Below, in pieces: positions 4 through 2,713 of a stretch of 64,000 nucleotides of DNA. The notes beneath the pieces are model-generated. The model saw nothing but the letters and a program-made list of their open reading frames with translations, did no database searches and was not told where the DNA came from. The position numbers and the translations under genes were made by a program. Where the stretch lies: positions 2,336,001 through 2,400,000 of the forward strand of contig CP147779.1 of the NCBI GenBank assembly GCA_037308085.1. The letters are read 5' to 3'. This stretch comes from Promethearchaeati archaeon SRVP18_Atabeyarchaeia-1. Its GTDB lineage: Archaea; Asgardarchaeota; Atabeyarchaeia; Atabeyarchaeales; Atabeyarchaeaceae. Position 1 is the first letter of the stretch, and every line of letters starts with the position of its first letter.

Positions 4-291
4 ATGATCGTCTTGGACAGCCTTGCTACTGGGGGTTTGCGTTTGGAAGACATCGGAACCATTGATGCGACCTTAGGAGAGGTCGGAGAGGCTACGTTGC
101 TGGCTCTAAAAGATGGGGCTAGAACTCCTGAGGAGATACGGGCATTGACGGGCCTTGTTCCAAAGTTGATTTCGGCTCGCTTGCGCGTGCTGGTTGACTT
201 GAAGTTGGCAACAGTGGGCTCTGATGGATATCTCCTGACCGAACAAGGTCTGGAACTAGCCAAGCTTGTCGCAGAGAGAAGGAATGCATAG
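4..291 (+). CDS. Winged-helix domain protein, possibly the C-terminal part of a gene starting before the window
   Basis: LLALKDGARTPEEIRALTGL...ISARLRVLVDLKLA...GYLLTEQG is a typical wHTH pattern; the frame is open to the window edge. Confidence 0.6.
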   Translation: MIVLDSLATGGLRLEDIGTIDATLGEVGEATLLALKDGARTPEEIRALTGLVPKLISARLRVLVDLKLATVGSDGYLLTEQGLELAKLVAERRNA

Positions 292-400
292 AAGCCTCTT
301 GTATGGGGGAGAAATCACCCCCTTCACAGAGGAAAGTCGAGGGATTTGGGTTTGGAGGACCCATTAGAACCTGTTAAGTTCTGCAAGGGAGTGGATCTGC

Positions 401-859
401 GTGTCAAAGAAAGGCGCTGATGAGAAATCAGACAAGAGGGGTGGAGTTACCTATCTTCTGTGTGTAGCGATTATTGGATACGATGAGCAAAATGATAAGC
501 CTGTGTTAAAGGCAAGCTACCCTGAATTTGATCTCAGTGAAGGCACCCTAAGCGGCGTATATTCTCTCTCATCTTTCACCGGAAACGAGCCAGGCTTCAT
601 CTCGCTTGGGGTTGACGAAGGCGTAGTGATGAGTTATTACACTGGCGTCCTAGAGCCTATGCGCTGCCGGCCTCATTGTCTGGTTCTCTTCCTCGATAAA
701 CCAGACAAACCCGAAAGATACAGGCAACTTCTGACTAAGCTGGGGTCTGTAGTCTTTCCCCTTCTCTGTGATAGAGACTTCAAGGAGTTTGTTAGGAAAC
801 TCTACGAGGCGGCGTCACTGACAGGTGAACTCAGATCAAAGCGTTCCTATTACGCATGA
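401..859 (+). CDS. uDENN/longin-like domain protein (Asgard-type)
   Basis: VAIIGYDEQNDKPVLKASYP resembles the uDENN 'FD...GP.l...YP' start, followed by beta strands and C-terminal helices; GGGAG upstream of the GTG start. Confidence 0.55.
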   Translation: MSKKGADEKSDKRGGVTYLLCVAIIGYDEQNDKPVLKASYPEFDLSEGTLSGVYSLSSFTGNEPGFISLGVDEGVVMSYYTGVLEPMRCRPHCLVLFLDKPDKPERYRQLLTKLGSVVFPLLCDRDFKEFVRKLYEAASLTGELRSKRSYYA

Positions 860-994
860 ACTGGCAGATTCAACTCTTGGGCGGCTGCGCCGTAACGGGT
901 TTGAGCCAAGAGAAACGAAAAACTGAGGAGAGACCGAGCTGAATTCGCTCTCCACGGAGATTGCCTCAGAGAATGAGTTCAGAAGGGGGATCTG

Positions 995-1303
995 ATGCAA
1001 ACGACGATAAGGTTCTTCACATCCAAGCACTGTGGCTTCTGCCGAGCAGCAAAAACAATACTAGACGGAATCAAGCAGAGCTTCGGCGAGAGCATGAGGG
1101 TAGAGGAGGTAGACATTGACGAGAATCCCCGAGCCGCAATCGAAGAAGGAATACTCGCACTCCCAGTTATCATCGTAGGTTCTTGGAAGTTCGTGGGGGT
1201 TCCTGACAAGGATGACATCATGACAGCAGTACTTAATTCCTTTGGCGGCCAAACGATCACTGCTTCAGAAAACAACAGAGAGATTCTCCAGGAGGGCAGA
1301 TAG
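995..1303 (+). CDS. Thioredoxin-fold protein (CGFC) with KaiB-like features
   Basis: FFTSKHCGFC CxxC motif; EVDIDENPRAAIEEGILALPVII resembles both the thioredoxin cis-Pro region and KaiB; lies 4 nt upstream of the kaiC-like gene. Confidence 0.8.
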   Translation: MQTTIRFFTSKHCGFCRAAKTILDGIKQSFGESMRVEEVDIDENPRAAIEEGILALPVIIVGSWKFVGVPDKDDIMTAVLNSFGGQTITASENNREILQEGR

Positions 1304-1307
1304 CACA

Positions 1308-2048
1308 ATGGATAGAACACCTTCAGGCATAACGAATCTCGACAAGCTAATAGAAGGAGGATTCCCAAAGGGGAGGACGATGCTTGTAGCAGGGGGGGCA
1401 GGGTGTGGGAAGACCATTTTCTCGTTGCAGTTCGTGTACTCGGGTGCAGTGCTTTACGATGAACCGGGGGTCTATGTCTCATTTGAGCAGCCTGTTGACG
1501 AAGTAGTTAGGGACGCGCAGAGATTCGGGTGGGACTTCGAGGAGATTCAGCGAAACAAGAAACTCGCACTCCTAGATTACTCCGCTGCGAAGACAAGAAC
1601 AACGGAGGTAGTCGTCGAGAGCCCAGAGTTCAACCTAAACCCTCTGATCAAAGCCATCGAGTTCACAGCCAAGGAAGTGGGCGCCAAGAGAGTCGTACTT
1701 GATTCCATTACTGCACTCCTCTTGCAGTTCCGGCACACGGACATTGTTCGTAGGGAACTGCAGCGTGTTAGTTCAGCTTTGAAGAGGATTGGATGCACCA
1801 CGGTCTTAACCTCGGAAGTGCCCAGAGGCCAGGTTGGATTCGGTAGGTTTGGTGTAGAGGAGTTCGTCGTAGATGGGGTAATCGTTCTCCAAGTCATTCA
1901 GAAGGGACTGCTGAGATTTAGGTGCATTGAGATAACTAAGATGAGAGGCACGAAAGCCGAGCTTGGGCTGAGAGCCTTAGGCATCACTGAAAGTGGGATG
2001 ATAGTATACCCAGAGAAGGTGTACACGATCGAGCAACTAGTCGTGTGA
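1308..2048 (+). CDS. kaiC: Single-domain KaiC-family ATPase (RecA superfamily), CI-like
   Basis: SGITNLDKLIEGGFP, Walker A GGAGCGKT, YVSFEQ, RVVLDS, GVEEFVVDGVI, ITKMRGT; start reassigned to ATG 1308 with GGAGG upstream. Confidence 0.88.
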   Translation: MDRTPSGITNLDKLIEGGFPKGRTMLVAGGAGCGKTIFSLQFVYSGAVLYDEPGVYVSFEQPVDEVVRDAQRFGWDFEEIQRNKKLALLDYSAAKTRTTEVVVESPEFNLNPLIKAIEFTAKEVGAKRVVLDSITALLLQFRHTDIVRRELQRVSSALKRIGCTTVLTSEVPRGQVGFGRFGVEEFVVDGVIVLQVIQKGLLRFRCIEITKMRGTKAELGLRALGITESGMIVYPEKVYTIEQLVV

Positions 2049-2173
2049 GAATTACCGATCACTTCTAAGCTCAGGGAGGAAAGATTATTAGCAAGAATCG
2101 TCTGCTCAATGCATGTCAACAATGAGATCAAATCGAGCCACCTAAGTATCGCTAGTCGGGTGCTAATCGAAAA

Positions 2174-2713
2174 ATGCCTACTATAATCAAACTAATAATA
2201 ATGGGTCTACCGTCGTCGGGGAAGACAACGTTCGTCAAACACATATTCGAAGAGAAGGAATTCAAGGGGATCGAAGACTACAAGCCGACGTTTGGCGTAG
2301 GCATATCTCTTTACGAGTATAAGGGTTCAGAAGGCATGATGGTCTCCACGTTTGACTGTGGGGGTCAGACAAGTTTCATTGACACATATATGACTGACCA
2401 ATGGGTTCCGACCCTCTTCGGAAAAGTCGCCATATTCTTTTTCCTTGTCGACTCCTCAGCAAGAGATAACCTGGATAGTGCCGCTAAGCTCTTTCGCAAG
2501 TACTATGAGAATCTTAGGAGGAATTCAAGCGCCGCAAAGGCATATGTACTGGCATCAAAATGGGACAAGCATCAAGTCATGCTTGACGAGTTGAGTCCGT
2601 TTTTCAAAGAGATCGACATATACCCAGTATCGGTCATAGACGGATCAGCTCGGAAAGTGTTCGAAGAGATAATGCATAACCTAATAGAGGAAAGAAAAGC
2701 GCAAGCAGATTAG
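2174..2713 (+). CDS. RagA/Gtr1-like small GTPase (G domain only)
   Basis: GLPSSGKT, PTFG, FDCGGQTSFIDTY, LFGKVAIFFFLVDS, SKWD; DCGGQ..F...Y......F..V is the Gtr1/RagA pattern. Confidence 0.8.
   Translation: MPTIIKLIIMGLPSSGKTTFVKHIFEEKEFKGIEDYKPTFGVGISLYEYKGSEGMMVSTFDCGGQTSFIDTYMTDQWVPTLFGKVAIFFFLVDSSARDNLDSAAKLFRKYYENLRRNSSAAKAYVLASKWDKHQVMLDELSPFFKEIDIYPVSVIDGSARKVFEEIMHNLIEERKAQAD

Follow-up and report, generated by a model that had tools for sequence, protein, structure and literature searches.

The stretch of DNA analysed here, referred to as the window, comprises 64,000 nt (G000:C1:2336001-2400000) on the single 2.81-Mb contig of the Atabeyarchaeia genome SRVP18_Atabeyarchaeia-1. Positions 4-2713 of the window hold five open reading frames (ORFs), all on the + strand, in which a KaiC-family ATPase is encoded together with a small GTPase. 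An initial annotation of this DNA had described five co-oriented genes in the order winged helix-turn-helix (wHTH), longin, CxxC thioredoxin, KaiC and Rag-like GTPase, and an ORF check found all five where it had placed them. The gene at 4-291 (+) encodes a small winged-helix (MarR/ArsR-like) protein, assigned from its AlphaFold2 (AF2) fold, Foldseek matches and weak Pfam HTH matches. It is followed at 401-859 (+) by the gene of a 152-aa stand-alone longin-domain protein of the NPRL2/FLCN/Lst4/DENN type, recognised from its AF2 model, VIA-align, Foldseek and language-model neighbours. The third gene, at 995-1303 (+), specifies a 102-aa thioredoxin-fold protein with a CxxC (CGFC) motif, identified through the Pfam Glutaredoxin and Thioredoxin families. 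It is the conserved partner gene of KaiC, a 246-aa single-domain CI-like KaiC-family ATPase encoded at 1308-2048 (+) and assigned through PF06745 and solved relatives. The last gene, at 2174-2713 (+), encodes a 179-aa small GTPase that consists of a Rag/Gtr1-like G domain only, as indicated by the Pfam Gtr1_RagA family and by solved relatives. Just outside the window, upstream of the wHTH gene, lies a sixth co-oriented gene; its 139-aa product may be AbrB/MazE+ACT-like, an assignment that we treat as a lead only.

The spacing between the thioredoxin and KaiC genes is 4 nt, and the remaining intergenic gaps measure 109 nt (wHTH-longin), 135 nt (longin-thioredoxin) and 125 nt (KaiC-GTPase). Shine-Dalgarno-like motifs are conserved ahead of the thioredoxin and GTPase genes, and in four loci the GTPase gene carries a conserved GGTG motif of this kind ahead of its ATG. 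The short thioredoxin-KaiC spacing and the conserved motifs fit, without proving, polycistronic expression. A search for RNA sequencing runs that contain this stretch found none, and no read from four wetland metatranscriptome runs was placed on it. Upstream of the 139-aa gene (L001:941-1015, equal to window -559 to -485), a TTATATA element lies ~90 nt ahead of the ATG, and between this element and the start of the gene there is a palindrome, TTTTGCG-AGAGC-CGCAAAA, at which the DNA-binding proteins of the cluster itself may act as on an operator. A regular expression for TATA-like octamers gave zero matches over the genes and the rest of the scanned stretch; it had been set too strictly, as the TTATATA is visible by eye.

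Proteins encoded by the cluster

The KaiC frame is open from 1242, and its likely start is the ATG at 1308, immediately behind the thioredoxin stop codon. The protein matched PF06745 with an E value of 1.7e-69 (234 bits), and both the Walker A (GGAGCGKT) and the Walker B (VVLDS) motifs were read intact in the translation, placing it in the KaiC family. Its best solved relatives are KaiC proteins aligned over their first (CI) ATPase domain (residues ~25-249, E 1e-64 to 1e-70), together with the single-domain protein PH0186. Circadian KaiC has duplicated CI and CII domains, with the phosphorylation sites in CII. The window protein has one domain, and its scores against the models NF006799 (219.7 vs a cut-off of 408) and TIGR02655 (186 vs 546) set it apart from circadian KaiC. 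The genome holds 19 KaiC-like genes.

The partner protein has a thioredoxin/glutaredoxin fold, as judged from matches to the Pfam families Glutaredoxin (E 1e-6, 29.2 bits, cut-off 22.9) and Thioredoxin (E 2e-6, 28.2 bits, cut-off 23.5) and from its CGFC and conserved ALP motifs. It matched the MJ0307-type thioredoxin equivalog with an E value of 6e-18 at 64.8 bits, below the cut-off of 92.75. The initial annotation had called the protein KaiB-like. This label could not be kept: the match to KaiB (PF07689) scored 18.3 bits against a cut-off of 27, the orthologue in another family, f26, scored 26.2 bits, and what the gene encodes is a thioredoxin with a CxxC motif. KaiC-linked thioredoxins retain this motif in Atabeyarchaeia, Thorarchaeota, f26 and Hod/Heimdall genomes. 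In the Freyarchaeia orthologues (L067, L076) it is lost, and the gene still stands ahead of KaiC. This comparison suggests that more than redox chemistry underlies the association with KaiC. In the genome, only two genes encode thioredoxins of this type.

Among Pfam families the GTPase matched Gtr1_RagA (PF04670) best, with an E value of 1e-17 (64.5 bits, cut-off 22), compared with 1e-10 for Arf, and its closest solved sequences are Gtr1 and RagA (E 1e-8). G1, the switch I Thr, DCGGQ (DxxGQ) and SKWD (KxD) are intact, and all are invariant in a 23-sequence alignment. The protein ends at residue 179, after the G domain, with the Pfam match confined to positions 1-125 of the 232 in the profile, and it lacks a C-terminal roadblock domain. 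The designation Rag-like thus stands for the G domain, which belongs to the Gtr1_RagA family, and falls for the full Rag architecture, since the roadblock domain that defines Rag/Gtr proteins is absent. The nearest relatives outside the Atabeyarchaeia family are ~300-320 aa long and have an extra C-terminal domain. Rag/Gtr1 GTPases are obligate heterodimers of two paralogues; in this genome, a paralogue with 60% identity is encoded 19 kb upstream. In the orthologue from another Atabeyarchaeia genus (L003:6845-7366; G012:C1:2107570-2108094), a TAG codon lies six codons earlier, giving 173 vs 179 aa, and the frame can be aligned past the stop.

The protein encoded at 401-859 matched no Pfam family at E values up to 1 and no NCBIfam model; the NPR2, NPR3 and Folliculin family models were unmatched. 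A phmmer search against 1.8 billion representatives returned only 5 matches. A profile search was then used; the orthologues of the cluster proteins are labelled, for example, as coming from Candidatus Atabeyarchaeum deiterrae or 'Njordarchaeota', and the Atlas neighbours belong to Promethearchaeota, in line with an Atabeyarchaeia-type Asgard genome. An AF2 model based on a 34-sequence alignment (pLDDT 78) has the topology b-b-a-b-b-b-a-a (b, strand; a, helix). DSSP placed the strands at residues 18-28, 33-40, 65-71, 74-80 and 93-98 and the helices at 47-60, 105-122 and 127-140, in agreement with a longin fold of ~120-140 residues. With VIA-align, the top match was a Lokiarchaeal longin domain (8yqg_B, Z 12.5) and the second a chain of human GATOR1 (8fw5_B, residues 6-144, Z 12.1), which we take to be NPRL2; both extend over 124-125 residues. 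Further matches were to the SEA-complex subunit 8adl_S (Z 10.9), Lst4 (9.8), FLCN (9.2), C9orf72-SMCR8 (8.9) and DENND1A (8.6). Foldseek gave GATOR1 and DENND1B as best matches, and the language-model neighbours were the NPR2, C9orf72, DENND11 and Folliculin clusters. The initial annotation had made a missing longin fold at this position a ground for rejecting its reading; the fold was found, and according to AF2, VIA-align and Foldseek it is of the NPRL2/FLCN/DENN type. The protein does not have the tripartite DENN architecture (uDENN + DENN + dDENN): its 152 residues contain one longin (uDENN-like) domain only.

These matches make the longin protein a candidate regulator of the neighbouring GTPase, either as a GTPase-activating protein (GAP) or as a guanine nucleotide exchange factor (GEF), or a candidate platform for it. 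The loop that joins strands 4 and 5 contains an arginine, R87, that 10 of the 11 close orthologues share and the wider family does not. The arginine fingers of the eukaryotic proteins are R78 of NPRL2 and R164 of FLCN, to which R87 may or may not be equivalent. Prediction of a complex between the longin protein and the GTPase with GTP and Mg gave a score of 0.10 (mark 0.32), which counts neither for nor against binding. On a JGI metagenome contig (L010:9-5711), a 271-aa Arf/Ras GTPase, a 1365-aa protein and a 236-aa longin relative (longin + coiled coil) are encoded by co-oriented and nearly contiguous genes.

The wHTH gene probably starts at TTG 43, as the N-termini of the orthologues align from residue 19; its reading frame stays open upstream of the window too. 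Pfam HTH matches were weak (E about 0.08). An AF2 model of the protein and three orthologues (pLDDT 84) consists of a three-helix bundle with a beta-hairpin wing, which is a winged helix-turn-helix, and in Foldseek it resembled the winged helices of MarR, Sso10a, CggR and Rio2, with a probability of 1.0 to the DNA-binding domains of MarR, Sso10a and CggR. The idea that this gene is a split-off C-terminal region of longer longin proteins (P0003, P0004) was dropped, as no similarity was found.

Conservation and recurrence of the gene linkages

The initial annotation had proposed synteny in relatives as a test, and the outcome was in its favour. The six-gene block, comprising the five window genes and the 139-aa gene, is kept in every Atabeyarchaeia relative examined, namely a second genus (complete 2.76-Mb genome, G012) and several metagenome contigs, with protein identities of 60-83%. 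The DNA downstream of the GTPase gene differs among them: the window has a tetratricopeptide (TPR) gene there, two contigs have a LAGLIDADG-containing insert and a 278-aa gene, respectively, and G012 has no addition at all. The cluster itself is the rightmost part of a ~22-kb stretch in which signalling genes abound. G012 lacks most of this stretch, and there the paralogous GTPase abuts a TrmB-coiled-coil gene. By this comparison, what is ancestral to the family is confined to the six-gene block and the genes immediately to its left.

To place the thioredoxin-KaiC pair in a wider frame, 200 genomes of the phylum were searched for the thioredoxin and the 28 best loci outside the family were inspected. 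A co-oriented KaiC gene lies directly downstream of the thioredoxin gene in 16 of these 28 loci. The KaiC proteins of the 16 loci are 40-45% identical to the window KaiC, which is their best match among the 19 KaiC-like genes of the genome, and their genes are usually followed by a degenerate KaiC-like gene. A further survey, restricted to Thorarchaeota, scanned species genomes with a Thorarchaeal thioredoxin. The order Roadblock, thioredoxin, KaiC, with or without a degenerate KaiC behind it, was found in 65 of 65 species loci wherever the contig permits. In most of these loci a Rab-like GTPase gene diverges from the Roadblock gene, and genes for a WD40 protein and another GTPase are present as well. 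In Thorarchaeota SMTZ1-45, the divergent GTPase is 100% identical to the crystallised Thor-Rab (PDB 7EZB/7EZD/7EZE). The Thor-Rab gene (L098:6763-7326, - strand, contig LRSL01000056.1) lies ~100 nt from, and divergent to, an operon of Roadblock, thioredoxin, KaiC and degenerate KaiC, a layout shared by nearly all of the 65 species loci; the Thor-Rab structure paper makes no mention of KaiC, thioredoxin or ATPase.

Related arrangements were found in two other lineages. In family f26 the order is GTPase, Roadblock, thioredoxin, KaiC and KaiC-like, all co-oriented and with gaps under 80 nt. In Freyarchaeia, thioredoxin and KaiC are followed by a fusion of a KaiC-like domain with an Arf/Ras GTPase and then by Roadblock, KaiC-like, TRAPP/Bet3-like and Rab-like GTPase genes. 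One such fusion, of 380 aa (Freyarchaeota, L084:7298-8440, - strand), has a degenerate KaiC-like domain at residues 7-156 and an Arf/Ras-type GTPase at 226-375. The fusion family comprises at least 613 proteins, of which nearly all those listed carry both KaiC and Arf/Ras Pfam domains, and extends over Frey/Jordarchaeales, Bathyarchaeia, Thermoplasmatota, Alkanophagales, Methanosarcinales, Archaeoglobus and others. The fusion presents itself as a Rosetta-stone link between KaiC and the GTPase. The linkage of thioredoxin to KaiC is ancient in Asgard archaea. In the genome of the window, KaiC and GTPase genes lie within 1 kb of each other in 3 pairs vs 0.6 expected (p about 0.03), two of the pairs being paralogous. 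The third, at G000:C1:1255232-1256578, consists of a small GTPase gene (+) and a KaiC-like gene (-) that are convergent and ~90 nt apart.

Longin-like and GTPase genes are also neighbours at other loci. The paralogous GTPase gene upstream of the window adjoins two small longin-like genes. The Atlas model of one product, of 203 aa, matched C9orf72, Folliculin-like, Avl9/uDENN, NPR2 and SMCR8 cluster models and also an Asgard GTPase-fusion cluster; the longin assignment at this locus is based on this model and on features, and applies to the 203-aa protein only. Alignment of the longin profile of the window protein with the two paralogues by hhalign was not significant. The three genes are adjacent in the congener, in a different order, and are not adjacent in the other genus. 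Outside the family, the nearest relatives of the window GTPase belong to family f14 (38-44% identity) and have 308 aa, an extra C-terminal domain and a strong Gtr1_RagA match. Directly upstream of the f14 gene, on the same strand, is the gene of a 454-aa membrane protein that shows homology to the longin family of the window in its N-terminal part (hhalign probability 88%, 131 columns). In the f14 genome G029 (L042:9320-11732, - strand), the C-terminal domain of the 308-aa GTPase reads as roadblock-like, and the 454-aa longin protein has many predicted transmembrane helices. Two more longin-GTPase neighbour pairs occur in the genome of the window.

A candidate KaiC-GTPase signalling module

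The gene arrangement is not a chance one: the block persists in every family relative seen, and its components are found together again in other Asgard classes. On balance, we think it somewhat probable that the five genes and the gene upstream of them are the Atabeyarchaeial version of an Asgard-wide KaiC-GTPase signalling module. The core of such a module would be the products of two almost contiguous genes, a thioredoxin-fold protein and a single-domain CI-like KaiC. Attached to this core would be a small-GTPase switch and a platform or regulator, in the window a Rag/Gtr1-like G-domain GTPase and an NPRL2/FLCN-type longin protein, and in Thorarchaeota, Freyarchaeia and a further family Rab/Arf-like GTPases and a Roadblock/LC7 protein. 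The best-supported reading of the gene orders is that the window variant is lineage-specific, the longin protein having probably replaced Roadblock and the Rag-like GTPase the Rab-like one. The notion of a KaiC-centred unit wired to a small-GTPase switch, already voiced in the initial annotation, draws support from a linkage that recurs, with different gene orders, in four Asgard lineages and from the widespread KaiC-like::GTPase fusion; the modest enrichment of KaiC-GTPase neighbour pairs in the genome of the window adds to it. The accompanying idea of a "proto-Rag nutrient switch" and its analogy to TORC1 go further than the evidence. The GTPase has the G domain only, nothing indicates a nutrient signal, and the module is not Rag-specific, because equivalent clusters use Rab-like GTPases and Roadblock proteins.

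In mechanistic terms, a KaiC oligomer would read ATP and, through its CxxC thioredoxin partner, the redox state of the cell. Depending on this ATP/redox state, KaiC may hold or release the longin protein, the GTPase or both. The longin protein would set the nucleotide state of the GTPase, as a GAP or as a GEF, and the two small DNA-binding proteins encoded at the head of the cluster could provide transcriptional input or output. We infer the physical interactions, the direction of signalling and the signal itself from KaiC hubs, longin GAPs and GEFs, and Roadblock GAPs elsewhere.

Several observations weigh against a module of this kind. The three long gaps could hold separate promoters, and the spacers are poorly conserved, ranging from 26 to 196 nt among relatives. 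Synteny of the full block is seen only within one family, and because the outer flanks are collinear too, it is only moderate evidence and in part reflects inheritance. A Hod/Heimdall-type genome has the order thioredoxin, thioredoxin, KaiC, KaiC-like among metabolic genes, with no GTPase detected. The f14 GTPase has a longin neighbour and no KaiC within 10 kb, so that the KaiC half and the longin-GTPase half can exist apart. The genome of the window encodes 24 GTPases and Asgard genomes are GTPase-rich, so some adjacency is expected by chance. Lokiarchaeia have distant relatives of the longin protein, of 125 aa, which stand alone, and no arginine is invariant across the longin family.

Much of this would also be accounted for by two independent units that happen to be neighbours, a thioredoxin-KaiC pair with a signalling or housekeeping role and a separate longin/GTPase pair, with no direct communication between KaiC and GTPase. 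The occurrence of each half without the other in Hod/Heimdall-type genomes and in f14, together with the gaps of >100 nt on both sides of the thioredoxin-KaiC pair, speaks for such a division, and adjacency would come easily in a ~22-kb stretch packed with genes of KaiC, V4R, longin and stressosome proteins, at whose edge the window lies. However, in every relative the thioredoxin-KaiC pair stays in place between the longin and GTPase genes, genes of the same types are grouped together in Thorarchaeota, Freyarchaeia and f26, and KaiC-like and GTPase domains are joined in one polypeptide in hundreds of archaea. We therefore regard two separate units as unlikely, though worth keeping in mind. 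Another alternative retains the linkage and assigns the longin protein the role of a GEF or a membrane/scaffold platform in the style of DENN, Mon1-Ccz1, TRAPP or Ragulator instead of a Rag-type GAP, the GTPase then serving membrane or polarity control and not metabolic sensing. Structural matches to the DENND1 GEF domain and to Mon1-Ccz1 and TRAPP longins are compatible with this role, as are the Rab-like GTPases, Roadblock proteins and TRAPP/Bet3-like gene of the sister clusters and the variability of arginines across the longin family. Yet the top eukaryotic matches are longins of GAP complexes (8fw5_B, presumably NPRL2, as well as SEA, Lst4 and FLCN), R87 is conserved in nearly all close orthologues and the best family of the GTPase is Gtr1/RagA, which leaves a GEF or platform role distinctly unlikely.

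Two further explanations concern the thioredoxin-KaiC pair itself. It is highly improbable that the cluster encodes a genuine KaiBC-type timing oscillator, in which the thioredoxin would be the equivalent of KaiB, KaiC would cycle through phosphorylation states and the GTPase would be the clock output. Such a clock would agree with the CI-like KaiC (E 1e-64 to cyanobacterial KaiC) and with a partner of thioredoxin fold that has sub-threshold KaiB matches here and in f26; the KaiC-binding form of KaiB has a thioredoxin fold. Nevertheless, the window KaiC is single-domain and lacks the CII half with its phosphorylation sites, the two-domain models score far below their cut-offs, the KaiB match is below threshold with the CxxC retained, and no KaiA was seen. 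Just as hard to credit is a cluster without signalling meaning, made up of a RadA/RecA-like DNA-repair paralogue and a general redox enzyme. The weak matches of the KaiC protein to RecA, RadA, DnaB_C and AAA_25 would allow it, but the KaiC model outscores these families by >180 bits, the dedicated thioredoxin-KaiC pairing is conserved across classes alongside GTPase and Roadblock genes, and thioredoxins of this type number only two in the genome.

A bolder form of the signalling module deserves mention. The cluster might preserve a prokaryotic forerunner of the Rag switch, in which the longin protein acts as an arginine-finger GAP for the Rag-like GTPase and its access is gated by the ATP/redox state of the thioredoxin-KaiC pair. 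We consider this a long shot. If true, the Rag-longin logic would be older than eukaryotes and in its original form would have been tied to a KaiC energy/redox sensor.

Comparison with known systems and genomic context

Among known systems, the longin fold most resembles the N-terminal longin domains in two GAP complexes for Rag GTPases, GATOR1 NPRL2-NPRL3 and FLCN-FNIP (Lst7-Lst4), with Z scores of 9-12, and as in those systems it is found with a Gtr1/RagA-family GTPase, here encoded beside it. Unlike GATOR1 and FLCN-FNIP, the longin protein stands alone, without DENN, TINI or C-terminal domains, without a Pfam NPR2 or Folliculin match and without a second longin subunit in the cluster; its arginine finger is only putative and the GTPase has no roadblock dimerisation domain. 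The Roadblock-thioredoxin-KaiC operons of Thorarchaeota and Freyarchaeia have orthologous thioredoxin and KaiC proteins and likewise carry a small GTPase and a Roadblock/longin-superfold protein. In contrast to these operons, the Atabeyarchaeia block has no second, degenerate KaiC and has two small DNA-binding genes at its head.

Makarova, Galperin and Koonin reportedly described archaeal KaiC-like ATPases as signal-transduction hubs (mBio, 2017). The window fits that picture in having a single-domain KaiC-family ATPase among sensor/output genes, with degenerate KaiC paralogues and V4R and GAF/STAS genes nearby, whereas its eukaryote-like longin and Rag-like partners are Asgard-specific. In cyanobacteria, fold-switched KaiB and the N-terminal thioredoxin-like domain of SasA bind the CI domain of KaiC; here too a thioredoxin-fold protein is paired with a CI-like KaiC, by gene linkage. 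The differences are that the CxxC is retained in most lineages, that the KaiB match is below the family threshold, and that CII and KaiA are lacking. The MglA/MglB polarity switch of Myxococcus and Thermus also combines a small GTPase with a co-encoded Roadblock/longin-superfold regulator, which in that system acts on the nucleotide state. Unlike MglA/MglB, the cluster has a Rag/Arf-like GTPase with a DxxGQ glutamine and a longin instead of a Roadblock partner, and the thioredoxin-KaiC pair is inserted between them.

No earlier description of the combination was found in the literature searched, a comparison that did not extend to the KaiC-hub paper of 2017. Small GTPases number in the dozens in Asgard genomes, and longin and Roadblock proteins are numerous as well. 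The cluster names a concrete, conserved pair, a Rag-like GTPase and an NPRL2-like longin protein, that can be assayed. It also places this pair in a module whose Thorarchaeal counterpart contains the crystallised Thor-Rab, and ties eukaryote-type GTPase switches to archaeal KaiC signalling and a redox-type thioredoxin. If these links hold biochemically, they would show an input route to Asgard GTPase switches and bear on the origin of Rag/GATOR/FLCN-type regulation. The layout of the MK-D1 genome rarely pairs GTPases with candidate regulators (Tran et al. 2024, PMC10933270).

The signalling genes upstream of the window form a dense run 5-20 kb away, at G000:C1:2316038-2330664 (L045:6038-19881, L046:3936-4664). 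Besides three intact and two degenerate KaiC-like genes and a remnant, it contains a tandem array of three V4R genes, the paralogous Rag-like GTPase gene and two or three genes of longin-like proteins. An RsbR/RsbS/RsbT stressosome set and genes for a GAF-STAS protein and a PP2C::kinase fusion are also present, and the ~22-kb stretch includes a gene for a TrmB-coiled-coil protein. Downstream of the GTPase gene, the window encodes at 2829-4133 (-) a 434-aa protein of ~12 TPR repeats, located between the GTPase gene and a TatD gene and seen in this genome only. A second TPR protein is encoded at L045:2480-3391.

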